A stretch of DNA of 64,000 bases from an uncultured Pseudomonadota bacterium. Its GTDB lineage: Bacteria > Pseudomonadota > Alphaproteobacteria > Rs-D84. Under the pieces are notes generated by a model that had not been told where the DNA came from, made no database searches, and saw only the letters and a program-made list of their open reading frames with translations. Position numbers and translations under genes: made by a program. Of this stretch, positions 27,216 through 55,588 are shown piece after piece. Each line of letters starts with the position of its first letter. Position 1 is the first letter of the stretch. The stretch lies in the NCBI GenBank assembly GCA_902774285.1, contig CACYHO010000001.1, positions 202,077 to 266,076 on the forward strand. Direction: 5' to 3'.

Positions 27216-27575
27216 GTGGCTATAGTTGATAAAGCACAATGGAGAGACAGTGACTGGGCAGCCTATTTAGGCTGCTCTGTTGCCGATGTGGCTAAATACA
27301 GGGAAATATTAAACGGCATGTTTCAAACTGGTATCGCGCAAATAACAGATACTGGTAAATATCGTTTTGAAATGTACAGATATGATATTACACCATCTGG
27401 ACAAAAAAGATTGTTTTTAAAATTAAGTGGAAACAATACTTTTGATACTTATGAAGCAGCACTTAAAGACGCGAATACAAACATAATTCCAAAAATGCAT
27501 CTAAGTGATTTTTGGGAAAGACACTTGGGTGTCCCTGCACGGGCAGTCCAAATGATGTTGATAAACGGAAGATAA
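27216..27575 (+). CDS. hypothetical protein (119 aa) with atypical codon usage
   Basis: ORF between pnp and ybaB. Arg is mostly AGA/AGG here versus CGT elsewhere in the window. No recognisable motif. Confidence 0.4.
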   Translation: MAIVDKAQWRDSDWAAYLGCSVADVAKYREILNGMFQTGIAQITDTGKYRFEMYRYDITPSGQKRLFLKLSGNNTFDTYEAALKDANTNIIPKMHLSDFWERHLGVPARAVQMMLINGR

Positions 27576-27877: not shown

Positions 27878-27885
27878 AAACAATA

Positions 27886-27973
27886 TTGTCATCCTGAGGG
27901 AGTATGTGCGACGCGAGGATCCACAGGAATAAACTTTATATTATGGATTCTCACGCTTCGCTCAGAATGACAA
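27886..27973 (+). repeat. nested imperfect palindrome (~88 nt) predicted to form a long hairpin
   Basis: Outer arms TTGTCATCCTGAG / CTCAGAATGACAA (12/13 complementary). Inner arms GCGACGCGAGGATCC / GGATTCTCACGCTTCGC (imperfect). Single copy in the window. Confidence 0.4.
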
Positions 27974-27987
27974 AAAGATTACAAATG

Positions 27988-28016
27988 AAAAACCGGCATA
28001 AAGCCGGTTTAAATTT
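27988..28016 (+). terminator. rho-independent terminator (CCGGCATAAAGCCGG + T-run) after ybaB
   Basis: 5-bp GC stem followed by TTTAAATTTT. Confidence 0.5.
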
Positions 28017-28093
28017 TGGTGGGCGTTAAGGGACTCAAACCCCTGACCCTCTCGGTGTAAACGAGATGCTCTAATCAACTGAGCTAAACGCCC
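28017..28093 (-). tRNA. tRNA-Val (anticodon TAC)
   Basis: Reverse complement GGGCGTTTAGCTCAGTTGATTAGAGCATCTCGTTTACACCGAGAGGGTCAGGGGTTTGAGTCCCTTAACGCCCACCA. Anticodon loop TTTACAC. Confidence 0.85.
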
Positions 28094-28194
28094 GAAGTGA
28101 TAACAATATTACCTTATTTTTTTTATTTGTCCAGAAATAATTTTTATATTCATCTTTTTTATGGTATAATTCATAAAAACAGTAGGGGGATTCC

Positions 28195-28596
28195 GTGAAA
28201 AAATTATTTATAGCATCTTTATTAATGGCCTTTGTATTTGATGCGAATGCTGTTGTTAATACGCGAAATCATACAGCAGAAAGATTTGCAGCAGAACAAG
28301 AATTAGAAATGAGCGAAGCCGAAGCAATCACAACCCTTGAAAGCGATATTGCAATATTGGATGCAGAAATTGCCAAATGTGAAAAATCTAAAAAAGGTTG
28401 GATTGCCGCGACAGTTATTGGTTCTGCTGGTGTTGTTTCAACTGGTATTGCCGCCGGGGTTCAAGGTGTGAAAATCAAGGAACAAAAAGATACAATTGCG
28501 TCAAAAAATAAAGAAATTAAAGATTTGGATGCCCAAATAGAAAATAAAAATAAAGACATCAAAGAAACAAACGCTGCAGCCACAATATATAAATAG
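28195..28596 (+). CDS. hypothetical secreted/membrane coiled-coil protein with glycine-zipper segment (133 aa)
   Basis: Signal peptide, coiled-coil, KCEKSKKGWIAATVIGSAGVVSTGIAAGVQGV hydrophobic glycine-zipper, then Lys-rich coiled coil. The N-terminal module is paralogous to the next ORF. Confidence 0.5.
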   Translation: MKKLFIASLLMAFVFDANAVVNTRNHTAERFAAEQELEMSEAEAITTLESDIAILDAEIAKCEKSKKGWIAATVIGSAGVVSTGIAAGVQGVKIKEQKDTIASKNKEIKDLDAQIENKNKDIKETNAAATIYK

Positions 28597-28606
28597 GTAA
28601 AAAACT

Positions 28607-30121
28607 ATGAAAAAATATTCTATTTCGTTTTTATTGTTATTAATTACACCATGTGTGTGTTTTGGATCGTCCGCACGTTATACACAATTGGTTCGTCAAA
28701 AACAGCAAAAGATGGAACAATTGGAAAAATGTATGGGATCGAACAAGGCATTACAGATTGCTGGTGTTTCAACACTGGGTTTGACGGCTGTTGGTGTTGC
28801 TGGGAATATATACGAAGCAAAAATGATAAAAGATAATCAAAAAACATTAGAAAAAAAAGAAGCGACAATAACAGAAAAAACAGATGAATTAAAGAAAAAA
28901 GGGGACGATTTAACCAAGGCCGAAGCTGATTTGGAAAACGCAAAGAAATCCTGGGAAGATGCGCGTACATTGGAAAAAATTGTAGAACAAGATATTGCAA
29001 ATATTACAAGTCTTGATGTTGGTATTGGAAGTAAAGTTGTAACAAGTGGTTATGATCCATCTGCGTTGCCAGCTGGGGGGCAGAAAAATAGGTTAGCATC
29101 TGCTATTATTGGTTTTATTAGAAAATGTAAACAATTGAAAGGTAATGGTATAAAAAATGTAAGTTTGTCGGATGCTGATAACCCAACGTGGCAGAATAAT
29201 GATGGTACTATATCAGCAGATGCTATGACAAAGTATTGGGACAAGACAGATGAATTTATTGTTATGGAATGTAAATTGATTGAATGTGAAGAATCAACAC
29301 CTTATCGTGCCGGGGATGAATGTGTTGAAAAAGAAACAACAGCAATTGAAGAAAAAAGTGCTCCAACAGCAGTAGCAGCCCCAGCAGCCCCAGTAGAAAA
29401 AACAAAGAAAGGGAATAAATCTGATGAAGCTAAAAAAGAAGAACCTAAAAAACTGATACAAGAAAAAGCTGCTTTAAAAGAACCAAAAAAATGTAATAAA
29501 ACAACATTGGATCAAGTAAAGGCAAAAGATGGTATTGTCGAAGATGGCAAATGTAAAGTGACGACTTGCAAAGGAAATTTAAGAAAAACCAAGGATGGTT
29601 TAAGTTGTGAATGTCCAGGAAATGATTATAAGTGGGATGCAGGAAAACAAACTTGTGTACAAGAAACGCCTGTGGCACCAGTTGTTAAAAACGAAAAATT
29701 GTCTAACGGGTCTGATAAGCCAGAAAACATTGACGATTTTAAAGATGTCAAAGTAACTTTCAATCAGGGCGTGGCATTGGCAAATTTGTATGCAGAAAAA
29801 TATAGATTGAATTTTGATTGTGAATCTGGATACAAGCCTGGTTCTGATGATTATTTAACCTGCAGGGAAAGCAGTGGGAAAAAATATGTGTTTCATTTTG
29901 ATTCTTTAACCGGTGGATCTGATAACACACCTGTATTAAAAGTTTTGTGCAAAATGTACAGCGGAACAGATATAAAACGCATAGGAGGAAATAAAATTTT
30001 ATGCCAAGGTATAGATTTAGGTTTGTGTGACCATATGAACGGTTCTTTAAAAAAGGTTTTGCCTAACGTGTCTGCAGGTAAACAAAACGATGGTTTAGGT
30101 GAAATGTGTGTGTTTTATTGA
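28607..30121 (+). CDS. hypothetical secreted protein: N-terminal coiled-coil/glycine-zipper module + Pro/Ala/Lys linker + Cys-rich C-terminal region (504 aa)
   Basis: Signal peptide. EKCMGSNKALQIAGVSTLGLTAVGVAGNI parallels the previous ORF. Linker APTAVAAPAAPVEKTKK...EPKK. C-terminal 250 aa has ~20 Cys in CxC/CxxC patterns. Confidence 0.55.
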   Translation: MKKYSISFLLLLITPCVCFGSSARYTQLVRQKQQKMEQLEKCMGSNKALQIAGVSTLGLTAVGVAGNIYEAKMIKDNQKTLEKKEATITEKTDELKKKGDDLTKAEADLENAKKSWEDARTLEKIVEQDIANITSLDVGIGSKVVTSGYDPSALPAGGQKNRLASAIIGFIRKCKQLKGNGIKNVSLSDADNPTWQNNDGTISADAMTKYWDKTDEFIVMECKLIECEESTPYRAGDECVEKETTAIEEKSAPTAVAAPAAPVEKTKKGNKSDEAKKEEPKKLIQEKAALKEPKKCNKTTLDQVKAKDGIVEDGKCKVTTCKGNLRKTKDGLSCECPGNDYKWDAGKQTCVQETPVAPVVKNEKLSNGSDKPENIDDFKDVKVTFNQGVALANLYAEKYRLNFDCESGYKPGSDDYLTCRESSGKKYVFHFDSLTGGSDNTPVLKVLCKMYSGTDIKRIGGNKILCQGIDLGLCDHMNGSLKKVLPNVSAGKQNDGLGEMCVFY

Positions 30122-30127
30122 TATAGC

Positions 30128-30152
30128 AACCGCCATATCGGCGGTTTTTTTA
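30128..30152. terminator. bidirectional terminator (CCGCCATATCGGCGG + T-run) between convergent genes
   Basis: 5-bp GC stem flanked by A-rich and T-rich tracts. Confidence 0.5.
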
Positions 30153-30899
30153 ATGTGTTTTTTGCCATTGATTTGCACGATTGATATATGCACGTGCCAA
30201 ATCAGTGTCAAACAGTGCCTTTTCTTCAAACAGTGTTTGTGATTTCAGTTTGCCTTCGGCATCACACCATATTTCATTGTCGCCAACAACCTTTTCAATT
30301 TTCTTCAGGTTGCCAACAATATTATCTGGTGATAATCCACCGCTGTATCCCATTGGGTGTTCGGCGTATATTGGTTTTTGCCAATTTTCTGGCGATATGC
30401 CATTGCCACCGCTTGCATCAAAAAGCAGCGAAAATTTTGCCCCACTTTTATGCAATTTTTCGATAGCATCTTTTGTTTTGTCATTGTATTGGAATATAAA
30501 TTCTGTATGCCTGAAATCATAAAGAACACCACGCAAAGCAATTATATTTATATTATCAGCAGTGTTTTTTGACATGTTTAATTGAACACGCTTTATAAGT
30601 GGTTTATTGGGCAGCCTTTCGATTTTCATCCAATCATAAATAATATCTGGGATATAGCCACGTGTGCATATATCATTCGACCATTCGTTGTTGATGTGTA
30701 TTGCCAAATTTATATTACGAAGCCCTTTTGCGTCGCGTAACAATTCATTAAACCATACATTGCGGGGTTGGTTCGCTGACATTTTACTTGGGTGACATTG
30801 AACAGCGATTTCTGCGTGTCTTTTTTGTGATAATTCAATAATAGATTTCACCGAATTATGTTCGCGGGGGTCGGAACATGTTATGTATCTTAATTTCAT
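30150..30899 (-). CDS. TrpF-like (phosphoribosylanthranilate isomerase family) TIM-barrel protein
   Basis: KLRYITCSDPRE matches the KICG[IL]TRxED N-terminus. LLFDASGGNGISPENW matches LLDSGGGTGxxFDW. GYSGGLSPDNI matches LAGGLxPxNV. 249 aa, longer than canonical TrpF. Confidence 0.5.
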   Translation of the reverse strand: MKLRYITCSDPREHNSVKSIIELSQKRHAEIAVQCHPSKMSANQPRNVWFNELLRDAKGLRNINLAIHINNEWSNDICTRGYIPDIIYDWMKIERLPNKPLIKRVQLNMSKNTADNINIIALRGVLYDFRHTEFIFQYNDKTKDAIEKLHKSGAKFSLLFDASGGNGISPENWQKPIYAEHPMGYSGGLSPDNIVGNLKKIEKVVGDNEIWCDAEGKLKSQTLFEEKALFDTDLARAYINRANQWQKTH

Positions 30900-37707: not shown

Positions 37708-40104
37708 ATGGCGACATTAACACTTGGAAAATCTGTAACGGTTGGTGCAGTGCAAAGTAAAAAAGGCGACGCGGTCTTTGTTGAACGTCGTCGTCGTATT
37801 GTTGCACCTGGTACTAACGAATTACGTGAAGAACCTAAAAAGGTTGAAACGGTACGCAGTGCCGCGGATGAAAAATTGCGCGCAGTATTAGAAGCTGCAA
37901 AAGCACGTGATGAAGAACGCAGAAAACGCGAAGCCGAAGAAGAAGCGGCGCGTCGTGCACGCGAAGCCGAAATTGAACGCGAAAATCGTGAATACGAAGC
38001 GGTCAAAGAACAATTGGCACAACGTGAAACAGAACAACAAATTGCAGAAGAAGCAGTTGTTTTACCAGTGCGTGAAAACACTCACGAAAACAAAAAGAAT
38101 AATGTCGCCTTTAATAATCATAACAATCGTCGCGATGAAGATACTGATGATATGCGTGGATCAAAACAAAACCGCTTTAAGAAAGATTTCAAAAAAGGCG
38201 GCAAGATTTCCATACACGATATTGTTATTGGTGGTGGCGATGATGACGATGATGAAGAAATTGGTTTGCGTGGTGCAAATCGCAGACGCAGTGAAGCATC
38301 ACTTAAACGTTTCCGTGAAAAAGCACGTGCTGTATTTACTGCACCACAAAAGGTTGAACATGTCGTTACATTGGGTGACACAATAACTGTTAAAGATTTA
38401 GCAGCAGCGATGGCTGAAAAGGTTGGTAATGTTATCAAAAAATTGATGGAAATGGGTATGATGGCATCGCAAAACCAATCTATTGATGCTGATACTGCTG
38501 AATTGATTGCAACAGAATTTGGTGCAACAGTTAAACGCGTTGATGTAAAACCTTATGCAAATATTTTGGAAGAACAACCACATGCGGATAGATTGCAACC
38601 AAGATATCCTGTGGTAACAGTTGTGGGACACGTTGACCATGGTAAAACATCATTGTTGGATGCGTTCCGTAATGCAAATGTGGTTGCAGGCGAAGCTGGT
38701 GGCATCACCCAACATATTTCTTCATATGAAGTTAAAACAAAATCTGGTGCAATAATAACATTCTTGGATACACCGGGCCACGAAACATTTACAGCAATGC
38801 GTGCACGTGGTGCGCAAATTGCTGATATAGTTGTGTTGGTTGTTGCGGCTAATGATTCAATTATGCCACAGACAATTGAAGCAATTAATCATATTCGCGC
38901 GGCCAAGGTTCCATTTATTGTCGCAATTAACAAATGTGATTTACCAGAAGCAGATCCATATCGTGTAAAAACAGACCTTTTGCAACAAGAAGTTCAGGTC
39001 GAAGAAATGGGTGGTGATGTTCAATGTGTTGAAATTTCTGCTAAAACAAAAATGGGATTAGATAAACTGGAAGAAGCAATTTTGTTACAGGCTGAAATTA
39101 TGGATCTGAAGGCCGATCCGGAAATGTTGGCATCTGCATATGTTGTCGAAGCCAAAATGGAAAAAGGACTTGGTGCGGTTGCAACAATATTGGTGCGTCA
39201 GGGAACTTTGTCTGTTGGTGATGTCTTTGTTGTTGGTGAAACATTTGGACGTGTTCGCGGGCTTATAAATTCAAATGGTGTTCGTGTTAAATCTGTTAAA
39301 CCAGGCCAACCAGCAATGGTTTTGGGATTGGAATCTGTCCCAAGTGCCGGTGATGAATTACATGTTATGGAAAATGAAGCACAAACACGTGAAGTTGCTG
39401 CTTATCGTGTCCAAAAAGCAAAAGATAAAGCAAACGCAGTTAAACGTTCTTCATTGGAAGAATTATTTGCAAAACGCGATGAAACCAAGAAATTGACTTT
39501 GCCGGTTATATTACGCGCAGACGTTCAGGGATCTGTGGAAGCAATTTCAGATATGTTACGCGGATTTAATTCTGACAAGGCTGGTGTTGAATTATTATCA
39601 GCCGGCGTTGGTCAAATTACCGAAGGTGATATCAGATTGGCAACTGCATCTGGTGCTGTGATTATCGCATTTAATGTTCGTGCAGATAGTGCTGTACGTG
39701 ATATGGCACGCAATAATGGCGTAGATATAAGGTATCACAGTGTCGTTTATCGTATCACTGACGAAATCAAAGAAATCTTGTCTGGTAAATTGGCGCCTGA
39801 AAAACGTGAAAACTTTATCGGATATGCAGATGTTATCGCATTGTTCACCGTGGGCAAGGGTATCAAGGTTGCCGGTTGTCGTGTAAGTGAAGGTGTAATA
39901 AAGAAATCAGCAATGGTTCGTTTATTGCGTAACAATGTTGTTATCTATGATGGCAAAATTGGCGAATTGCGCCGTGAAAAGAACGAAGTATCCGAAGTTG
40001 GCGTTGGCGTAGAATTTGGTATGAGTTTCGACAAATATAATGACCTTAAAGAAGGCGATCGTGTCGAATGTTACGAAGTTCAAGAAGTCAAAGCACAACT
40101 TTAA
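37708..40104 (+). CDS. infB: translation initiation factor IF-2
   Basis: GTPase motifs [25 protein letters not shown] and NKCD. 798 aa. nusA-infB synteny. Confidence 0.92.
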
Positions 40105-40123
40105 AAAACAAATAATGCTAAAA

Positions 40124-40153
40124 AGTCCCCGATTTATTCGGGGATTTTTTTTG
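40124..40153 (+). terminator. rho-independent terminator after infB (TCCCCG-atttatt-CGGGGA + T-run)
   Basis: 6-bp GC stem followed by TTTTTTTTGTTTTTTT. Confidence 0.55.
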
Positions 40154-40189
40154 TTTTTTTATGCGATATTTGATATAATAAACATTATA

Positions 40190-41071
40190 ATGAGAATGCG
40201 GGCTTTTTTATTATTTTTTACATTTTGTTTTAGTGTGTCACCGATTATGGCAGACACATCTGACACTTTTAATGCAGTTTATGGACAGGATGAAGATTTG
40301 TTGCATTCTGATTTAAACCAAAGTTTAGATCAACAATTACAAATCATTGAAGAACGCGTAAAACAGATAGATCCTGAAATAGTCGAAAAATATGCAAATG
40401 ATGGCAAATATGAAAAAATTTATAACTATCAGCATTTTTTGGCGAATCGTGTTTATGAAACAAAAGCAGAACAGTTTTTGAATAGGTTGCAAGAACATGC
40501 AAAATCCAAAGGGTACAAAGTGACAAAAGCATCAGAAGGGATTGATGATACTTATATTTTGGAGTTGCCAACATATATGAAATCACCAGAATGCTATGAA
40601 AACGGAGATATACGCGATATTCGTAAGTGCGAATACCCAAAAGATTATGATTTTAGTTTGTTAAGTATAAGTGAAAGTGAAATATTTTTTATGTTAGATA
40701 ATATGGAAACCATATATTCGTATTTTGTGATACGTGATGGTTCAGGAAGCGAAATTGGTGATGAAAGTAAAGACGTAGAATCCGGAGAATTCATGTTAGA
40801 ATTGTCAGAGACAAAACTATCACACAAAGAATACTTAGACTTTGAAAACAGACACATATATTGTAATTGGGGTGCTGAAATACCCTATGCTAAAGAATCA
40901 AATAAATGTTCTAAAAACTCTATCCTGACGAAAAAATGTGCAGAAATTATGCAGTTGAGCATGGAAGCATATGATGAATGTTTGGGAGAATATATTTATT
41001 TGCCTGCCACAGATGTTAAATCAGTAATTCATAATTTTCTGTACGATTCGCAAAGGAATAGTATTAAATGA
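40190..41071 (+). CDS. hypothetical secreted protein (293 aa)
   Basis: Start chosen at MRMRAFLLFFTFCFSVSPIMA (signal peptide). Acidic, 8 Cys. No recognised motif. Confidence 0.45.
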   Translation: MRMRAFLLFFTFCFSVSPIMADTSDTFNAVYGQDEDLLHSDLNQSLDQQLQIIEERVKQIDPEIVEKYANDGKYEKIYNYQHFLANRVYETKAEQFLNRLQEHAKSKGYKVTKASEGIDDTYILELPTYMKSPECYENGDIRDIRKCEYPKDYDFSLLSISESEIFFMLDNMETIYSYFVIRDGSGSEIGDESKDVESGEFMLELSETKLSHKEYLDFENRHIYCNWGAEIPYAKESNKCSKNSILTKKCAEIMQLSMEAYDECLGEYIYLPATDVKSVIHNFLYDSQRNSIK

Positions 41072-41886
41072 AAAAAAAGATAGTGTTTTTATTATTGATT
41101 ATTGTTCCGATAATATCGACATCGGTGTCCTATGCAGCAAGTCAAAATACAACAGATGAGATACAAGAACAAGATTTAAAAAGCATGCTTGATAAAATTT
41201 GTGAAAGAGGTGGTTGTTCTGTTGAAAGTGTTAAACAAATGGACGATGAAGAATTTTTGCTTAATGTATTACAACCTACTGTAAAACTAATAAAACTTAA
41301 ACAAAAATATGAAGCGGCGAAAGAAAAAGAACAATCTCTTGCCAACCGGACTTTAACGGCGGCAACTGTTGCTGCAACTGGAATCGGTGGTATGGAATTG
41401 GCTATGGGGCTTTCTGAACAAAAGGCCGATAAAGAAGCAGATGCCGATATGGCGGCATATATGGCAACAATGCGTTGTACCTATGGTAATAAAAAGCAAG
41501 TAAATGCCGGTCCAGATGAAATAGAATTGCCCGGCGGAAACAATTCGGAATTAATGTCTTTGCGTAATGAATATTTTTCTTTGGCTGCAGACCTGAAAGA
41601 ACGCAAAGAAGCATTAGGTATGGCACCAGGAATTGAATCTGAAGAAATTTTAGATAAAGCCACAAGCGGACTTTACGATGATGAAAATATTGGTACGGAT
41701 TCTGGTGCGTATGCATCCATTTATCGTGCAGAAAATGGTAATGAAACAGATCAGGCAAAGATAGATGAAGAACGCAAGGTATCCAAGAATCGTGTAATTG
41801 GTGGCGGTGTTGCCGCCGGTGCGGGCGTGGTCGGTGGAACCGTTGGTAATGCTGTGATAAACAGAGATAGAAAAACACGTAAATAA
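41068..41886 (+). CDS. hypothetical secreted coiled-coil/glycine-zipper protein (272 aa)
   Basis: Signal peptide. LTAATVAATGIGGMELAMGL and C-terminal VIGGGVAAGAGVVGGTVGNAVI glycine-zipper segments. Same style as the 28195 family. Confidence 0.5.
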   Translation: MKKKIVFLLLIIVPIISTSVSYAASQNTTDEIQEQDLKSMLDKICERGGCSVESVKQMDDEEFLLNVLQPTVKLIKLKQKYEAAKEKEQSLANRTLTAATVAATGIGGMELAMGLSEQKADKEADADMAAYMATMRCTYGNKKQVNAGPDEIELPGGNNSELMSLRNEYFSLAADLKERKEALGMAPGIESEEILDKATSGLYDDENIGTDSGAYASIYRAENGNETDQAKIDEERKVSKNRVIGGGVAAGAGVVGGTVGNAVINRDRKTRK

Positions 41887-46345: not shown

Positions 46346-47725
46346 ATGCTTAAAGTTGTAGGAGGGAGGCTTTTGCAAAAACAGTCTGGTAATTTTTTAC
46401 TGCAAGCGTTGCTAGCACTGACTTTAGTCTTTGCTTTTATGCCGTTTTTTGCGCGTCGTATTTCTTCGCGCGATATGGCCGCCCAAATGTATGCTGCAAC
46501 AGAACAAATAGAAACAGCGCAATCTGCTGCGCGAATTTATTTGCGTGAAGAAAAAGATAATTTGCCTTATAAAAAGCAAGAAATAAGCAAAGAAAATTTT
46601 GTTAATATATTGGAAAACTATGGTTTGCCACTTGGTTTTGTCCCACAAACACATTTCAATCAGAACATATCTCTGGTGATAAACAAAGATGAAAATAGTT
46701 TTTATGGTTTTATAAATGTAACCGGTGGAAAATTATCGAAAGTGCAAATGGCCGAATTAGCACGCAGAATAGGTTTTTATGCAAAAGTTAACGGAAATAA
46801 TATCGAAGTCGATATACCACTTGATGCAATGTACAGCGATATTGTGTCAAAAAAAGAAACTGGGGAAAATGTTGGTTTTTTATCTGAATTAGATATGAAC
46901 GATAAAAGTGTTGATAAGATAGGCGTTTTATTTGCGCGCAATGGTGAATTTGAAAGCGCGCAATTTAATACATTGTCGCTTTATGGTATTGAAGAAAGTA
47001 GAAAAGATAAAAATAAAATTTCTGATTTATATGCGAATAAAACAGTTTTTCAAAGTGCTGATGGTGGCGCTGCTTTATCCATTTCCCGTGGTGAAATAAC
47101 GACAAGTTCAGCATCGTTGCGTACAGTGTCAAGATTTGGAACAACTGGTGGTTTTGAATCGAATGTTGCAGCGGTATATGATTTTTCTATGTCGGAAGGT
47201 CGTACGGGGTTTAGTGGTCCATCACAATGGTTGGTTCGTGGTTCTGTGCTGGCCGATAATTTTAATTTTAATGTTGATAGATTAGATATAGGTTCGTATC
47301 TTGATGCTTCGCGTGGACAAGATGTTTATATTGATCCAGAAAGTTTGACGTACGCATCAAAAGTAGGTGTTGATGCAAAAAATATATATGCAGCAAATAT
47401 TTCATTGCGCGATCAAACTTCATACGGTTTATTGGATGGTCGTTCTGGGCCTTTGTTAATAGATATAAGACCTGCTGGGACTTCTCTTTTGCCAGATGCA
47501 TATGTTGATGGGATAAATAATGATTCTTTTGAAATTATTGCCGATCCAAAAGACACAACAGGTAAAAAAGTTTCGTGCAGAGACATAATAAGTCAAATTG
47601 ATGTTGTGTATAACAGTAAATCTTTGGCACAGAATATAATTTGTCAGTATGTGTTTTGGCAAAGATTAGAAGCAAGAATAGATATAAAACAATGTTTAAA
47701 AAGTGGGCGAAGTGATTGTATGTAA
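46346..47725 (+). CDS. large pseudopilin/TadE-like protein A (prepilin-type N-terminus; 459 aa)
   Basis: Probable true start is TTG at 46373, 7 nt after GGAGGGAGG, giving leader MQKQSG|NFLLQALLALTLVFAFMPFF. ExAQSAxxxY...NYGLP motif shared with protein C. 4 C-terminal Cys. Confidence 0.5.
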   Translation: MLKVVGGRLLQKQSGNFLLQALLALTLVFAFMPFFARRISSRDMAAQMYAATEQIETAQSAARIYLREEKDNLPYKKQEISKENFVNILENYGLPLGFVPQTHFNQNISLVINKDENSFYGFINVTGGKLSKVQMAELARRIGFYAKVNGNNIEVDIPLDAMYSDIVSKKETGENVGFLSELDMNDKSVDKIGVLFARNGEFESAQFNTLSLYGIEESRKDKNKISDLYANKTVFQSADGGAALSISRGEITTSSASLRTVSRFGTTGGFESNVAAVYDFSMSEGRTGFSGPSQWLVRGSVLADNFNFNVDRLDIGSYLDASRGQDVYIDPESLTYASKVGVDAKNIYAANISLRDQTSYGLLDGRSGPLLIDIRPAGTSLLPDAYVDGINNDSFEIIADPKDTTGKKVSCRDIISQIDVVYNSKSLAQNIICQYVFWQRLEARIDIKQCLKSGRSDCM

Positions 47726-48908
47726 AAAGTATTTTGACAGATTAAATGCAGATATTGCACGCGGTGCAACTTTGACCGAAGTGATTTTGGCAGTTGCTGT
47801 TATAATTGCAGTGTCCCCTTTTATGTATAATCAAATTATTGACATGTCCAATGAATCACAAGATATTGCACGTGCTAATGAGATTGTTAATATACGTGAT
47901 TCTGCTATAAATTATATTCGTATCAATCACGAAAAATGGGATGATACAGTGGAAATAAAATTATCCGATGAAGAATTAAAAAAAATATCTTCTATGGCAC
48001 ACAGTGGATATATTGATAAATATAAAGTTAAAGGGGCTTCTATAAGTGATATATATTTGGCGTTTAATATGGAAAATTCGGATTACAGGGCGGCAAATAT
48101 AGCAAAACAAATCGGCGAAGATGCTGCGGTCGTTCGTGAAGATGGAATTGCTTATTCGCAAAGTTGGGCTGTTTCTGCGCCTGAAGATTTTCATGTTGGC
48201 GATTTGATTTTTAGAATATCTTATGATTTCGAAGGTGCAGATAAATCAAGATTTTTACATCGTGGAACAATGGGTGAAGACAAATTAAATCAAATGCAAA
48301 GAAATTTGCATATGAATAATTTTAATGTGTTTAATACGGCAAAAATTGACGGACTTTCTGCAAAAATTACAGATGTTGATGCAGTGTTTCTTGAATCAGA
48401 TGTTGTGGATGCAAATACTGTTTATTTTACATCTGGGGCAAATATGAATTCGGATAGTGTGACCTTTTCTTCTTTACGTGTGACCGGCGATACAAGTGGT
48501 TTTAGATTAATCAAAGCAGATGTTTTAAATGACGATAAATATACAACAAGTGGAAAGTTGATTGTTGATCGTGCAACAATTGGCAATTCTGTTAATGTTG
48601 CTGGGAATTTAATTTTAAAATCTTCAAGTGGAAGAAGTGTTTCTGGTTTTAGTGGCATATCAATGAATAAACTTTTAACGCCATATTTATCTGCTACAGA
48701 TTTGGTGTTTTTTGAAAATTTTGGTATAACGGTTTCTGGTGAATTATTATTGGCTGGCAAGGCACCTTTGAAAATTGGGAACTGGGCGTTTCCTTCAACA
48801 ACCCCACCATCTTTTTCAAAGTTAACATTAACACGTGCATCTGTTCCACCAACACCGGATGCTGATGAATTTAATAAAATCATAGAAGCAAATTGGAATA
48901 CAAAATAA
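47703..48908 (+). CDS. large pseudopilin/TadE-like protein B (401 aa)
   Basis: ...DIARG|ATLTEVILAVAVIIAVSPF (Glu at +5, Pro at +14/15, as in the TadE-like N-domain). Ser/Thr/Gly-rich beta-repeats shared with C. Overlaps A by 23 nt. Confidence 0.5.
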   Translation: MGEVIVCKKYFDRLNADIARGATLTEVILAVAVIIAVSPFMYNQIIDMSNESQDIARANEIVNIRDSAINYIRINHEKWDDTVEIKLSDEELKKISSMAHSGYIDKYKVKGASISDIYLAFNMENSDYRAANIAKQIGEDAAVVREDGIAYSQSWAVSAPEDFHVGDLIFRISYDFEGADKSRFLHRGTMGEDKLNQMQRNLHMNNFNVFNTAKIDGLSAKITDVDAVFLESDVVDANTVYFTSGANMNSDSVTFSSLRVTGDTSGFRLIKADVLNDDKYTTSGKLIVDRATIGNSVNVAGNLILKSSSGRSVSGFSGISMNKLLTPYLSATDLVFFENFGITVSGELLLAGKAPLKIGNWAFPSTTPPSFSKLTLTRASVPPTPDADEFNKIIEANWNTK

Positions 48909-50221
48909 TGGTAAAGAAACGAAACTTTTTTCATAAAAATACACAACATGGTGGGATGTTGGTGGAATTGATGATGACTATTGCGCTGGCCGCAATAATT
49001 ATTCCGTTTGTATTCCGTTATCAACAAACGGCGGTGTCGCGTGCAAGAAATGTTGCCATAACAAAACAAATGGAAAATGTTCAAAGTGCGCTTGAAAGAT
49101 ATATTGTTGAAAACAAAACAGAATTAATGCGTCCAAAGGGTAAAAATATAACGCGTATAAAAATAACAGATTTAATAAATTATGGTTTGCCAGAATACAT
49201 TGCAGAAACTTATGGCGATGATTATCAATTAAGAATTTTGAAGTCTTCTGACAATAACAATAAATCAACATTGCAAGGAATAGTGCTTTTATCTAATCGT
49301 GAAATATCGCCAATGCGTACACGTGAAATTGTAAATCTTGGTGGTGGTAAATTCGGATTTGTCGAAGGTAATATAACATATGGTGGTTTTGGCGCGTTTC
49401 GTGGTTCTGCCACCGATTTTGGAATAGCAAATACCAAAGGCTTGATTGGAACAACAAATGTAAAACGCGGGAATACGGAATACTTATGGCGTTTGCCGTC
49501 TGAAAATGAAGATGATGCAACGATGCAATCTGCGTTAAATCTGGATGGACACGATATGAAAGGTGTTCGTTTTGTTGATGCAAATAAAGCCCAATTTGAA
49601 GAAAAGTTAAAAGTTGGAAAATTGGATGTTTCAACTTTGGTTTTTGCCAACCGTTCAACGATAGATTCTGTATATTCAACGAACATAGCGGTCGTAAACG
49701 GTGCATTAACAGCAGATTCAAGAAATATGACAGTTAATGGAACTTTGTCTTTGGCAGATTCAGCAAAATTTTCATCTTTTTCAACGAACGATTTATATGT
49801 TAATACATTAACTTTAAGTGGTTTTAGTGTTTCGACAACAGATGGAAAATCTTCCGCATTAAAAATTATTGGTGATATGGATTTAATAATGGGCCGAGTC
49901 AGTGCGACATATGTATCTGTTGGTTATACTGGTTCTGTGACACCGCAATTAAATATTACAGACAGAATACAAGATTCAAAAGATTCTTCGTTTTATTGGG
50001 ATATTAAAAACAGCAAAGCGCGTTTTGTTGATATTAATTCGCCAGAACTTTCGCGTATGGCATCAATCATAATGGCACAAGAATCTGTGTTTGGTACAAT
50101 GGCGACGACTGTATTTGGTGGTGTTGCAGCAAACGCAAATGCAACTGTTGCAGATTATATAAACGCGATAAACAATATGCAGACACAAATACGCGCAAAA
50201 TATGAAATGTTGAATTTATAA
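48893..50221 (+). CDS. large pseudopilin/TadE-like protein C (442 aa)
   Basis: ...NTQHGG|MLVELMMTIALAAIIIPFVF, then ENVQSALERYIVENK...LINYGLPEYI. Long Ser/Thr/Asn/Gly beta-repeat region. Overlaps B by 16 nt. Confidence 0.5.
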   Translation: MEYKIMVKKRNFFHKNTQHGGMLVELMMTIALAAIIIPFVFRYQQTAVSRARNVAITKQMENVQSALERYIVENKTELMRPKGKNITRIKITDLINYGLPEYIAETYGDDYQLRILKSSDNNNKSTLQGIVLLSNREISPMRTREIVNLGGGKFGFVEGNITYGGFGAFRGSATDFGIANTKGLIGTTNVKRGNTEYLWRLPSENEDDATMQSALNLDGHDMKGVRFVDANKAQFEEKLKVGKLDVSTLVFANRSTIDSVYSTNIAVVNGALTADSRNMTVNGTLSLADSAKFSSFSTNDLYVNTLTLSGFSVSTTDGKSSALKIIGDMDLIMGRVSATYVSVGYTGSVTPQLNITDRIQDSKDSSFYWDIKNSKARFVDINSPELSRMASIIMAQESVFGTMATTVFGGVAANANATVADYINAINNMQTQIRAKYEMLNL

Positions 50222-52291: not shown

Positions 52292-55200
52292 ATGAAAAAC
52301 ATCATCAAAGCACTTAGTTTATTGTCAATTTTTGCCGTGATTCCTGGGGCAATGGCCGCCACTTCGCGTGTAAGTATGATATCGTCACGCACGTCGCCAC
52401 GTTTGCCGTCATTTGCGGGATATATTACGGCGGTTACAAAGGGGATAACAACCACAACGACATCTTCGACGTCTTTGTGGGGTGATGTTGATTGTATCAA
52501 TAATTACACGGATTGTATTACCGCAGAAGATGCGTGTGGTGCGGATTTCGAAGAATGCACAACAAATGTTTTGTTTCATGCCCAAATGCCAAAGTGTTTG
52601 AACGTTTTGACACAATGCAGTGCAACCGGGATTAATTCGCTTTTTGGAACATCGGCGGTAACGGCTTTGTCTAACGTTGATTCTTGGAAAGATGATGCGC
52701 ATAAAGAAGTTGATCGCTATACATACCCATTGGACGGCAGTATTTTGGGACAAAGAATTATCGGTGGTGCAATTGCAAACAGATTGACAACAGAACAATG
52801 TGTCCGTCGTTATACAAACTGTTTGAATCGTGATGATGTTTGTGGTGCTGATTTTGAATTGTGTACATCACAACGTGAATTCAAAAAACAGGCTGTTTTG
52901 TGTGATTCTACATTGGCGCGTTGTGACAATGCTGGCAAAAAAGAATTGTTTGGTTCTGTTGAAAATGCGGCCGCGTTAAAACCATCTGGTGATGATGCAA
53001 GATTGAAATCTATGATTGAAGACGGTCAACAATTGGCGGCAATGAATGCGGTTAAAACATGTCAACGTGTTACCGATAATTGCTTGGTTTCTGCATGTTT
53101 GAATAATCCATGGCGCTGTGTCGAAGGAACCAGTATGCGTAAAATCAGTGCTGCTGATTTCATAGGCAGTGCAACATCTGATGCAAATACAAAAACATCT
53201 ACTATTGGTTTTCAATACAAGAAAGACGATAAAGGTGAATTTGTATTAGATGCTGATAAAAATAAAATACAAGAATTGGTATCTGATGCAGATTTATATG
53301 CATTGACTGGTTCGGATATTCGCAAAAATTTAAAAGCACAATGTTTGGAAACAATCGGTGCGAATAAATATTGCCATATGACATATCGTGAAAAATCCCC
53401 AAATAATAAAGATTTGATGGATATCGATTTACAGGAAGATGTGTTCTCTTTGGCATATGCGGCGCGCAAAGAAATGGTTAACACAAAAATCCAAGAAGAA
53501 TTGAAAAAATTCGATACCAAGGCAAAAGAAGCCTGTGTTGAAACAATTGCATCATGTGCAATGCGTTCTTGCGGTGGCGGTATTGGTTCCGTATGTTATA
53601 AAAGTGCTAAAAGCAGTAGTTCAAAAATAGGTGTAGTAAAATTAAAATCTGATGATTCAGGAATAAATATAAATGGAAAACCGTATAATGAAATTAAATC
53701 TGGATGTGCTGCGATTGTAAATACGGATCAAAATTGTATTTATGCGGCAACAGCATTGAATGATACTGGTTATAATTATTCCTATATAAATGACAAGGCA
53801 TTTGATGCATTGTTTCCAACTTTAACAAAAGGCGGGGATCCGATTGGTGTTGTTGCATATTTGAATTCTCTGTTGGCAACATCTTATAACGATGCAGCAA
53901 TTGAAAATATGAAAAAACAATGTGCAAATACAGCACTTTCTTGTGTGATTGCTATGTGTGGTACAGATTACGAAAATTGTTATCGTAACCGTACAGACGT
54001 TAGATTGGCTGGTGCAGGTTCTTACAATACAGACAGCAGTGAATTCAACAAAAGTATGAATAAGGTTGGTGGTGTCTTAGATTATAACATTGTTACAGGT
54101 TTGTGTTTGAATACAGTTAAAAACGCGTCTTCTTGTGCAGAACATTTGAAATTGGCTGCTGCGGACTGGCGTGATAAAGCAATGTCAGATAGCACAAGCT
54201 GGGCTTCAACAGATGAAGACGGTAAAGTAACAAAATATGGATCTGTGCGTGCAGGATGGTTGGATGCGAATAAAACACAAGCAACTTCTGATAATACAAA
54301 ACTGGTTGGTTGTACAGGAAGTGCAGAACAAGAAAGAAGAAATCAACAATGCGATACTTATACTGTCGCAGAATGTGATTGGATAGATCCAGAAACAGGG
54401 TGTTTGTATGATCAGGAAAAACGTGTAGACATTGGGGAATATGCTTTGTCACAAGCTGGGGAAACATTGTTCCAAGAATTGTTGGCTGACGTTGAACGTG
54501 AAGTTCAGGCAAAATACAATGCTAAACTTACCAAAGAACAAGGTATCTGTTTGGCACAAAACAATGGTGGTATTATGGGAGCAACCGAAAATGGTTCTAC
54601 ATTTATGTGGGTAAAGATGGCTAATAACAAAAAAGTACCAAACACATATAATACCAAGGGGCTTAAAACAACTGATTTCAAAGCATCTAATGATTTGTAT
54701 GGTTCATTCTGTCGTGCACGTATTACATTGACATCAGATGATAAATATATCCAAGATTTATTGGATAATGACAAAGAAAATCTTTCTACTGCATATTTTG
54801 CAGTTGGTGATGCGTTCACATGTGGTTCTTGGATAAGCGATAAAAAACTTGAAGAAATCACAAAGAAAGTTGGTGAAAAAGCACGTAAAGATGCCGGTGA
54901 AGGTTCTACAACAGAAAAAATCGCATATGCATGGGGAACTGTTGCACCTGCATTGGCTGGTTTGGGTGTTGGTTTGGGACTTGGTGAATCTGGCTTGTTG
55001 GGTAAATGGTTGAATAATGCAAGCATTGCCAATGGTGTAACAGGTGACACAGCATATAATAAGAAAACGTGTATAGATTATGCAAAGTATGCAAAGGAAG
55101 AAGCTTCAAAAGTGACAGATGAAGACGATGAAAAGCATATAGCCTTTGCGAAAGTTGCAAAGACATACATTGAGAGTGCAGCTGGCTTGTGCAACAATGT

Positions 55201-55588
55201 TGTCCCTTCTAATAGTGAATACAGAGCTTTATGTAAAATGGATGGTCTTGAAGCGATTGATAAAAAGAACGCCATCCCTCAAGCTGACTTGATAGAAAGT
55301 TTTGCTGATAGAATCACAAAAGCTTGCGAATCTGCAAATGATAGCTTTGTTGTTGGTAAAAATGGTAATATAGCGGCACGCGCTACAATCCCTGTTGTAA
55401 CAACAATAGCTGGTGGTGCTTTGGGTGTCGGTATTACTGCTTCTGTATTAAAGGCTAAGTATGAAGCTGCTGAAAATGAAGCAATTGCAAAATGGATGGA
55501 AGAAATTGGCGATCATATCCAATGCTTCCTGGGCGCCCAAGAACTGGGTTCTTATGGTGACGTGGTAAGCTTCACTATAGATGAATAA
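52292..55588 (+). CDS. giant secreted Cys-rich repeat protein (1098 aa) with C-terminal glycine-zipper segments
   Basis: Signal peptide MKNIIKALSLLSIFAVIPGAMA. Duplicated 6-Cys module C-x3-YT[DN]C-x5-CGADFExCT-x10-C-x6-C...LFG, plus degenerate copies. The module is spelled out in the 52292-55588 finding. GLGVGLGLGESGLLG and IAGGALGVGITASV near the C-terminus. Confidence 0.55.
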   Translation: MKNIIKALSLLSIFAVIPGAMAATSRVSMISSRTSPRLPSFAGYITAVTKGITTTTTSSTSLWGDVDCINNYTDCITAEDACGADFEECTTNVLFHAQMPKCLNVLTQCSATGINSLFGTSAVTALSNVDSWKDDAHKEVDRYTYPLDGSILGQRIIGGAIANRLTTEQCVRRYTNCLNRDDVCGADFELCTSQREFKKQAVLCDSTLARCDNAGKKELFGSVENAAALKPSGDDARLKSMIEDGQQLAAMNAVKTCQRVTDNCLVSACLNNPWRCVEGTSMRKISAADFIGSATSDANTKTSTIGFQYKKDDKGEFVLDADKNKIQELVSDADLYALTGSDIRKNLKAQCLETIGANKYCHMTYREKSPNNKDLMDIDLQEDVFSLAYAARKEMVNTKIQEELKKFDTKAKEACVETIASCAMRSCGGGIGSVCYKSAKSSSSKIGVVKLKSDDSGININGKPYNEIKSGCAAIVNTDQNCIYAATALNDTGYNYSYINDKAFDALFPTLTKGGDPIGVVAYLNSLLATSYNDAAIENMKKQCANTALSCVIAMCGTDYENCYRNRTDVRLAGAGSYNTDSSEFNKSMNKVGGVLDYNIVTGLCLNTVKNASSCAEHLKLAAADWRDKAMSDSTSWASTDEDGKVTKYGSVRAGWLDANKTQATSDNTKLVGCTGSAEQERRNQQCDTYTVAECDWIDPETGCLYDQEKRVDIGEYALSQAGETLFQELLADVEREVQAKYNAKLTKEQGICLAQNNGGIMGATENGSTFMWVKMANNKKVPNTYNTKGLKTTDFKASNDLYGSFCRARITLTSDDKYIQDLLDNDKENLSTAYFAVGDAFTCGSWISDKKLEEITKKVGEKARKDAGEGSTTEKIAYAWGTVAPALAGLGVGLGLGESGLLGKWLNNASIANGVTGDTAYNKKTCIDYAKYAKEEASKVTDEDDEKHIAFAKVAKTYIESAAGLCNNVVPSNSEYRALCKMDGLEAIDKKNAIPQADLIESFADRITKACESANDSFVVGKNGNIAARATIPVVTTIAGGALGVGITASVLKAKYEAAENEAIAKWMEEIGDHIQCFLGAQELGSYGDVVSFTIDE

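Follow-up and report, generated by a model that had tools for sequence, protein, structure and literature searches.

A conserved two-gene operon of gut Alphaproteobacteria of the order Rs-D84 encodes predicted exported proteins that share a coiled-coil and hydrophobic-helix module

We analysed a window of 64,000 nucleotides (nt) from an uncultured alphaproteobacterium of the order Rs-D84 (positions 202,077 to 266,076 of contig CACYHO010000001.1), the whole stretch of DNA to which coordinates refer below unless a locus in a relative is named, and in it two adjacent plus-strand genes, here called A and B, that form a conserved two-gene operon. Gene A (28195..28596, stop codon included) has a GTG start and an AGGGGG ribosome-binding site and encodes the small partner of 133 amino acids (aa); gene B (28607..30121), encoding the large partner of 504 aa, begins 10 nt beyond the stop codon of A. 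A sigma-70-like promoter candidate on the same strand (TTTATA-16-TG-TATAAT, 28143..28170), which is a consensus match only (10/12), lies 25 nt upstream of the A start codon, and an intrinsic-terminator-like hairpin with a T-run (30128..30146, plus strand) follows the B stop codon by 7 nt. The promoter-like site, the 10-nt intergenic gap and the terminator-like hairpin thus frame a bicistronic unit. The window is bacterial chromosome of ~36% GC and carries pnp, ybaB, rlmN, lptD, nusA-infB, dnaX and an rRNA operon. The B protein occurs with identical sequence on five public contigs from rumen metagenomes, and named homologues of A and B are labelled 'MAG: Alphaproteobacteria bacterium' or 'Candidatus Enterousia'. 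An initial annotation of the window had grouped A and B with two further open reading frames (ORFs), at 41068 (ORF C) and 52292 (ORF D), in one paralogous family of secreted glycine-zipper proteins; all four ORFs and the peptide strings quoted for them were confirmed in place.

The signal peptide of A (aa 1–19, MKKLFIASLLMAFVFDANA, 28195..28251), read from the sequence, would be cleaved after A-N-A and ahead of VV; its n-, h- and c-region pattern is conserved in the A family (alignment A1, 50 homologues). A predicted amphipathic helix (aa 41–64, 28315..28386) is supported by the column entropy of its heptad register and by an AlphaFold2 (AF2) helix over the same residues, of low confidence; its heptad a and d positions are I45, L48, I52, L55, I59 and C62, and positions e and g are acidic. 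Cys62 (codon 28378..28380) is invariant, occupies a heptad d position and is the sole Cys of mature A. The hydrophobic helix that follows (aa 69–92, WIAATVIGSAGVVSTGIAAGVQGV, 28399..28470) carries an invariant stripe of W69, T73, G76, T83, A87 and Q90 on the continuing a/d positions, and the Lys-rich helical tail (aa 93–133, 28471..28593) varies within the family in sequence and in length (11–62 aa). Residues invariant in A1 are L48, D51, L55, E58, C62, K66, K67, G68, W69, A71, T73, V74, G76, G79, T83, G84, A87, Q90 and K98. The family comprises > 180 homologues of 110–150 aa, and a HMMER scan of 1.84 billion representative proteins with the A profile gave 160 matches at E ≤ 1e-3, all 59–247 aa long. 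An AF2 model of A from the 50-sequence alignment was all helix, with a predicted local distance difference test score (pLDDT) of 62 that was too poor for a fold search. As a curiosity, the Gly/Ala-rich segment and heptad repeat of A resemble a fusion peptide and heptad repeat 1 (HR1) in composition, and the paramyxovirus Fusion_gly model of Pfam gave weak matches in six of the 50 A homologues (best E 0.005); this is no evidence of relatedness.

B begins with a signal peptide (aa 1–20, ending PCVCFG ahead of SS, 28607..28666) whose cleavage point is predicted. The shared module (aa 22–119, 28670..28963) consists of a basic helix (aa 22–47), containing the invariant Cys42 (codon 28730–28732), a hydrophobic helix (aa 48–69, ALQIAGVSTLGLTAVGVAGNIY) and a coiled-coil stalk that runs to aa 119. 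Its invariant residues are L28, K32, K35, L39, K41, C42, G44, L49, A52, G53, S55, T56, G58, L59, A61, G63, V64 and N67. Over the first ~100 aa, identity is 50–69% across 62 homologues; past residue 250 only about a dozen of these can still be aligned. Beyond the module lies a conserved globular domain (aa 121–245, 28967..29341; alignment A3; AF2 pLDDT 80–96) in which D129, G141, G148, Y149, C174, C222, C227 and C239 are near-invariant, then a Pro/Ala/Lys-rich linker (aa 246–289, 29342..29473), predicted to be disordered (AF2 pLDDT < 50 over aa 247–289), and finally variable Cys-rich domains (aa 290–504, 29474..30118) that hold 12 of the 16 post-module Cys and are common to ~10 homologues only. 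The AF2 model of B (pLDDT 77.5) has helices at 22–51 and 66–119 and confident domains at 121–245, 290–355 and 370–504. A Foldseek search of this model against the PDB returned nothing better than E 0.06, and weak glyoxalase-like beta-alpha-beta matches were disregarded.

The N-terminal ~110 aa of B share with A a signal peptide, an amphipathic helix, an invariant Cys and a Gly/Thr/Ala-striped hydrophobic helix. This agrees with the layout described in the initial annotation, namely a signal-peptide-like start, the motif K-C-x-x-S-x-K (KCEKSKK around Cys62 in A, KCMGSNK around Cys42 in B), a hydrophobic stretch rich in Gly and, behind it, a predicted helix rich in Lys and Glu. In pairwise BLASTP, A and B did not match significantly (E 0.11), nor did the comparisons among A, B and C give anything significant. 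Profile alignment by hhalign of A1 with A2 (25 B N-termini), however, gave a probability of 93.8–94.2% (E ~1e-7) over 71 columns, from the helix ahead of the Cys to ~35 residues beyond the hydrophobic stretch. As a null, the columns of A2 were shuffled 100 times within segments (signal peptide, N-terminal helix, hydrophobic stretch, C-terminal helix); the shuffles scored 16.8 ± 3.8 with a maximum of 29, against 47.8 for the real alignment (z ~8). Since the real score lies above all within-segment shuffles, the similarity is position-specific and reaches beyond the hydrophobic stretch. Linking sequences were also found: the hidden Markov model (HMM) of the A family scored 18.3 bits on the B gene of locus L004 in a relative, and that of the B module 25.9 bits on the A gene of locus L053. 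By profile comparison, the modules of A and B are homologous.

To examine the register of the module, column entropy was calculated by heptad position with the Cys set at d. The a/d positions had the lowest entropy in both proteins (0.13 versus 0.63 in A; 0.29 versus 0.65 in B), and a register shifted by four residues scores almost equally. The resulting stripe continues unbroken into the hydrophobic stretch, through I45, L48, I52, L55, I59, C62, K66, W69, T73, G76, V80, T83, A87, Q90 and I94 in A and through Y25, L28, K32, K35, L39, C42, x46, L49, G53, T56, T60, G63, N67, E70 and I74 in B. From its sequence, the module of ~55 residues reads as one continuous helix: an amphipathic coiled coil with its Cys at a core d position, running on into ~24 hydrophobic residues. 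Within the hydrophobic part the stripe is small or polar (T/G/V/T/A/Q in A, G/T/T/G/N/E in B) and the other faces are hydrophobic. Compared position by position, the stripe residues of the two proteins would complement each other (T/G, G/T, V/T, T/G, A/N and Q/E). About two thirds of the surface of the hydrophobic helix is conserved, suggesting contacts with more than one neighbouring helix. The continuous stripe favours a straight helix over a re-entrant hairpin, although much the same pattern would be expected of two short helices packing against each other by these small residues. The GxxxG/AxxxG periodicity that the initial annotation had reported did not hold up, as the small residues follow a 3-4-4-3 heptad spacing (T73, G76, V80, T83, A87 and Q90 in A; G53, T56, T60, G63 and N67 in B) and A contains one GxxxG only (G84–G88). 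In the core clade the helix before the Cys carries a charge of −4 to −7 in A and +1 to +3 in B, A being the more acidic in 32 of 40 pairs.

The distribution of the two genes was surveyed using one genome per GTDB species, which gave 44 loci, all from gut Alphaproteobacteria or Enterousia metagenome-assembled genomes (MAGs). An A gene is followed directly by a B-module gene in 43 of the 44, often with overlapping stop and start codons, and the single exception runs out at a contig edge. The same order is found in L004–L006 and around the most distant A members (L051 and L053, each with an overlapping B partner). There are variations on this arrangement: two B paralogues stand behind A in L006, L031, L037 and L039; L007 has a B on each side of A; in L036 A–B occurs as a tandem of two pairs; two or three pairs are present in each of five genomes; and in some loci the B partner is module-only, at 111–180 aa. 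The neighbourhood pnp, ybaB, A, B, rlmN, lptD is kept in close relatives and differs in others while the pair persists, so the conserved unit is the A–B pair itself. A–B is a conserved two-gene operon of the order Rs-D84, and the pairing is obligate. The genome-specific expansion proposed in the initial annotation was not borne out, the window holding a single A–B pair with no further A or B member in HMM searches of all its 464 ORFs; in relatives, where it had suggested looking for more copies, A–B pairs are found clade-wide. Further unannotated ORFs with signal peptides and many Cys (6–17 or more) flank A–B in relatives (L005, 2370–4687 and 6581–7789; L053, 5–1484; L051, 3420–4064), and many disulfide-rich exported proteins are seemingly encoded in this clade.

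The signal-peptide patterns of both proteins are canonical (MKK, a hydrophobic core, then A-N-A before V in A or C-F-G before S in B), which means that the region right after the signal peptide must be exported. Anchoring of A or B as lipoproteins was rejected: neither has a conserved lipobox, the signal peptide of A has no Cys, and a Cys in the h-region of the B signal peptide is not invariant (e.g. homologue P0026) and not in an L-[AS]-[GA]-C context. The count of Cys after the module Cys is even (4–34) in 61 of 62 B homologues and odd in one; the tails of the mini-B proteins have 2 or 4. Even parity is what intramolecular disulfides lead one to expect, and thus an oxidising, extracytoplasmic location for the C-terminus; from its Cys content, the C-terminal part of B looks disulfide-bonded and extracytoplasmic. 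Zinc binding was judged an unlikely cause of the parity, since no CxxC motif of the zinc type was found in B and some homologues have up to 34 Cys. Among A proteins, 252 of 253 have no Cys after the module Cys, and in 214 of the 253 no other Cys occurs between a point 45 residues upstream of it and the C-terminus. With the post-module Cys of B even-numbered and A without any other, the module Cys is left unpaired in both proteins. The simplest reading would be an intermolecular Cys62–Cys42 disulfide, joining equivalent d positions when the two helices lie parallel and in register. The hydrophobic stretches are only marginally hydrophobic, with a summed Hessa free energy of membrane insertion (dG) of +3.1 kcal/mol for A and +4.5 kcal/mol for B, whereas genuine N-terminal anchors encoded in the window have −2.5 to +2.6 kcal/mol. 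The values of A and B fit complete translocation rather than stop-transfer.

No Pfam or NCBIfam model covers the A/B family, for which scans of both databases gave no family above threshold, and searches of PDB sequences with both profiles and with A alone gave nothing at E < 0.01. We define the family by what was found here: a signal peptide, an amphipathic helix, C-x4-K-G and a ~24-residue hydrophobic helix striped with small residues, in proteins encoded in A-then-B tandem. Scattered weak matches to DivIC, SLATT, DUF4407, Trp_oprn_chp, Fusion_gly, phage LysB, ETRAMP and EbpS, each in at most 12 of 50 homologues, were read as generic for a hydrophobic segment plus coiled coil. One resemblance is family-wide. 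The model NF033928 for XaxA, subunit A of the alpha-xenorhabdolysin binary toxin, gave sub-threshold matches in 49 of 50 A homologues (best E 1.6e-8); A itself scored 25.9 bits against a cut-off of 125, with aa 41–125 on profile positions 179–264 of 339, and 8 of 10 distant, short-tailed A members matched the same region. XaxA and its counterpart YaxA belong to the ClyA superfamily of alpha-pore-forming toxins; of their relatives, NheC was matched by 15 of 50 A homologues and HblD by one distant A member, and among B modules MakE and NheC were each matched by two of 25. B does not match the XaxB model. The top PDB sequence match of A is XaxA as well (6gy6/6gy8, E = 3; A 78–119 on XaxA 270–311). 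In XaxA, the part under profile positions ~178–264 is a coiled coil leading to a hydrophobic tip, which dips into the membrane across about half its thickness (PMC6086661). Like A, XaxA and YaxA run from a helix through a Gly-containing hydrophobic tip at the coiled-coil end into a Lys-rich helix, and like A–B they are encoded by two adjacent, related genes, a partner gene being present at 43 of the 44 A–B loci. Neither XaxA nor its adjacent paralogue XaxB acts without the other (PMC6086661). XaxA has a tail five-helix bundle, a neck and a head, in about 400 aa (PMC6086661). Unlike XaxA, mature A has ~114 aa, about a third of that length, and no tail five-helix bundle; A and B also differ from it in their Sec signal peptides and invariant Cys, and B in its unrelated disulfide-rich domains. 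With both the whole-protein cut-off and the ClyA-type architecture lacking, A and B were rejected as members of the XaxA family. By analogy, the resemblance supports the module being a membrane-insertion element, homology and convergence being indistinguishable here.

The families behind the Pfam models Gly-zipper_Omp, Gly-zipper_YMGG and Rick_17kDa_Anti (outer-membrane lipoproteins of the SlyB/PCP type) resemble A and B in being exported and in having a Gly/Ala-rich, marginally hydrophobic stretch. However, A and B match none of their HMMs, have no lipobox, and carry a single heptad-striped segment of ~24 residues with conserved coiled-coil flanks. FtsB/FtsL (DivIC-type) proteins are similarly pairs of small proteins, apparently built to pair, with a transmembrane-type helix running into a coiled coil. 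In A and B, by contrast, the coiled coil precedes the hydrophobic helix, the signal peptide is cleavable, a Cys is invariant and the distribution is limited to one clade; matches to DivIC and FtsL in the A family were weak, scattered (≤ 12 of 50) and below threshold. Class IIb two-peptide bacteriocins and the Caulobacter glycine-zipper proteins CdzC/CdzD are small exported proteins encoded by adjacent gene pairs, with Gly-rich helices thought to pack in the membrane, and they come with dedicated ATP-binding cassette (ABC) or type I exporters and immunity genes. They are not known to have a Sec signal peptide, a Cys-bearing coiled coil or a large variable domain. The searches run, none of which was a comparison aimed at them, turned up nothing similar to them in sequence.

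We favour a reading, which we hold about evenly balanced between right and wrong, in which A and B form a Sec-exported, disulfide-linked hetero-oligomer that is embedded in a membrane and carries a variable outer domain. Both proteins would be exported by Sec and would pair in register through the module, by the coiled coil and probably a Cys62–Cys42 disulfide; a hetero-oligomer would then assemble with its small-residue-striped hydrophobic helices sitting in the membrane. A would be the constant partner, and B would add the coiled-coil stalk and the variable disulfide-bonded domains outside the cytoplasm. It would hold a variable envelope or surface domain in a membrane, as an anchor or an insertion device, and would probably come into play when the cell touches a partner or host; the suspected partner dependence of Rs-D84 bacteria (PMC12306168) fits this. 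The membrane might be entered from its periplasm-facing leaflet, by a re-entrant hairpin, or the helix might be straight and span the cell's own outer membrane; a partner or target-cell membrane is a further option. More tentatively, and with clearly more doubt than belief, A and B can be read as an undescribed envelope device, a disulfide-locked heteromeric alpha-helical bundle either across the cell's own outer membrane or inserted in a partner membrane.

Several points weigh against the hetero-oligomer reading. Pairing of the two proteins is predicted from sequence, and the charge complementarity of the N-terminal helices weakens in divergent subgroups. In the AF2 monomers of A and B the hydrophobic segment has a pLDDT of 36–47, a very low confidence for straight helix and hairpin alike. 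If the 24-residue helix is straight and both its flanks are extracytoplasmic, the membrane that it spans must be the outer membrane or a foreign one, and no route of assembly for this is known or encoded nearby. A functional link was sought among the neighbouring genes and none was found, these being housekeeping genes (pnp, ybaB, rlmN, lptD). Further, family scores against NF033928 are 14–30 bits (cut-off 125) and confined to profile positions ~178–264, and the resemblance is one-way, as the A profile retrieved no XaxA-sized protein from the 1.84 billion representative proteins.

The alternatives make different use of the same evidence. A and B might be a minimal binary system of alpha-helical type that forms pores in membranes or perforates them, sharing descent with XaxAB/YaxAB, Nhe/Hbl and Mak or having converged on them: after release they would oligomerise on a partner or host membrane and insert their helices, with the variable domains of B binding a receptor. 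Such a system could open the metabolites of a partner to a bacterium without transporters and biosynthesis. We consider this unlikely. The sub-threshold XaxA, NheC, HblD and MakE matches across the family, and XaxA as the top PDB match of A, speak for it; a ring-like oligomer would suit a helix conserved on about two thirds of its surface with polar T, Q, N and E on the stripe; the binary gene logic of adjacent paralogues is that of XaxAB (PMC6086661; PMC5935710); and the organism is itself suspected of depending on a partner, Rs-D84 genomes being < 1 Mb and without most biosynthesis and standard transporters (PMC12306168). Against this stand scores far under the family cut-offs, the failure of the A profile to find XaxA-sized proteins, and the absence of a ClyA-type five-helix-bundle tail in a mature protein of ~114 aa, compared with roughly 400 aa in XaxA. 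There is no outer-membrane export route or immunity gene nearby, and the pair sits in conserved core-genome synteny and not on an island. An invariant disulfide cysteine is not known as a feature of the XaxAB-type toxin family, which also counts against a pore-former.

Somewhat less probable again is that A and B are type-I bitopic inner-membrane proteins, with a cleaved signal peptide, a periplasmic N-terminal helix, a stop-transfer anchor and a cytoplasmic C-terminus that includes the domains of B. The hydrophobic stretch of 22–26 residues is of bilayer-spanning length, and the sequence directly after it is Lys-rich (KIKEQK; KLKKLKKSG in distant members), as the positive-inside rule would have it; however, the region ahead of the segment is equally Lys-rich (KCEKQKKGW), and the dG values are as weak as or weaker than those of the signal peptides themselves. 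The weak Pfam DivIC and NCBIfam FtsL matches reflect a transmembrane-plus-coiled-coil layout and, with its Cys-free tail, A alone would be compatible with this topology. B is harder to reconcile with it, as the 61:1 ratio of even to odd Cys counts in its C-terminal part, without CxxC, points to disulfides and an oxidising compartment, and its Pro/Ala/Lys linkers and its small, beta-rich domains with Cys have the appearance of exported modules. Most improbable by a wide distance is the proposal from which we started, a single genome-specific glycine-zipper surface or outer-membrane family (SlyB, YMGG or Rickettsia 17-kDa-antigen type) that includes ORFs C and D. Signal peptides are common to all four proteins, as are marginally hydrophobic stretches rich in Gly, yet A, B and C each have their own clade-wide orthologues, the lipobox is missing, and none of A, B, C and D matched Gly-zipper_Omp, Gly-zipper_YMGG, Rick_17kDa_Anti or Gly-zipper_OmpA at E ≤ 1 in hmmscan; glycine-zipper and Rick_17kDa_Anti models were also absent among the 25 Pfam families listed for 50 A homologues and the seven listed for 39 B homologues. 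Profiles of C and D against those of A and B reached probabilities of 0.1–7.7%, within the score range of the shuffle null.

In detail, the profile of the C core gave 7.7% against the A family (score 23.9, inside the shuffle null), 0.6% against the B module and 0.3% against the C-terminus of D, and A or B profiles against D gave 0.1%. By these comparisons C and D resemble A and B in composition only. Of the single paralogous family, A and the N-terminus of B therefore stand together (hhalign 94%, above the shuffles) and C and D fall out; a merely compositional similarity, which the initial annotation had named as what would overturn its grouping, is what was found for C and D and not for A–B. 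Its suggestion of a surface or membrane-inserting family survives for A and B to the extent that they are exported with a membrane-type hydrophobic element, without the genome-specific expansion. C (41068–41886, plus strand), the start of which overlaps the stop of an unannotated ORF at 40040–41071, is a member of a family of its own, which has > 300 homologues within the same clade; its conserved core (aa 76–265, ~190 aa, 60–75% identity) is bounded by both Gly-rich, marginally hydrophobic segments and has a lone conserved Cys137, and N-terminal inserts and C-terminal extensions vary within the family, some members having CarboxypepD_reg domains (PF13620/PF13715). D (52292–55588, plus strand) is a giant protein of 1098 aa with a signal peptide, 42 Cys in repeated C-x6-C-x6-C-x6-C-x12-C-x6-C blocks and two Gly-rich hydrophobic stretches near its C-terminus (aa ~877–895 and 1035–1053); it has no Pfam or NCBIfam match and is unrelated to A, B and C by profile comparison. 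Upstream of D lie three tandem overlapping ORFs of 459, 401 and 442 aa (46346–50221, plus strand), with no Pfam match, that start much like prepilins or pseudopilins, with a leader-like N-terminus and then a hydrophobic helix (G before ATLTEVILAVAVII, GG before MLVELMMTIALAAII); these may be unusually large pilin-like proteins. For annotation, the gain is that three unrelated families (A/B, the ORF C family and the giant Cys-repeat protein) are now separated despite their like composition.

Around the operon, the neighbours of A and B are pnp, a hypothetical protein of 119 aa, ybaB, a tRNA-Val gene, a hypothetical protein of 249 aa, rlmN, a SurA-like gene and lptD. The 119-aa ORF (27216–27575, plus strand) lies in the pnp–ybaB gap, keeps this position in relatives L001–L004 and has no family match. 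Neither strand is coding in a GC-rich block at 27885–27935. The space from ybaB to the A promoter holds a bidirectional terminator-like hairpin (27990–28010) and the tRNA-Val(UAC) gene (28017–28093, minus strand), after both of which comes the promoter candidate. Downstream of B on the opposite strand is the conserved 249-aa hypothetical gene (30150–30899, minus strand), which has no Pfam or NCBIfam match and is present as tandem copies (249 and 250 aa) in relative L004 (6518–8031).

Rs-D84 and Enterousia are widespread in animal guts, and they lack standard transporters and most biosynthesis (PMC12306168). A two-gene system present in every sampled species, and sometimes duplicated, in so tiny a genome is a strong candidate for an interface with the outside world. 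The contrast within the pair is marked, A being nearly invariant in its membrane helix and B carrying fast-changing disulfide-rich domains, and the ~55-residue module offers a compact model for heteromeric assembly of a coiled coil with a membrane helix. If the resemblance to XaxA reflects common descent, A/B would be a stripped-down relative of the binary alpha-pore-forming toxins. Should the bundle cross the cell's own outer membrane, it would be an alpha-helical anchor, of a kind rare in diderm bacteria, with hypervariable disulfide-rich domains displayed at the cell surface; inserted in a partner membrane, it would be a minimal two-component pore or fusion-peptide-like element. Either version, if true, would be central to how these transporter-poor gut Alphaproteobacteria, with genomes below 1 Mb, live off other cells.

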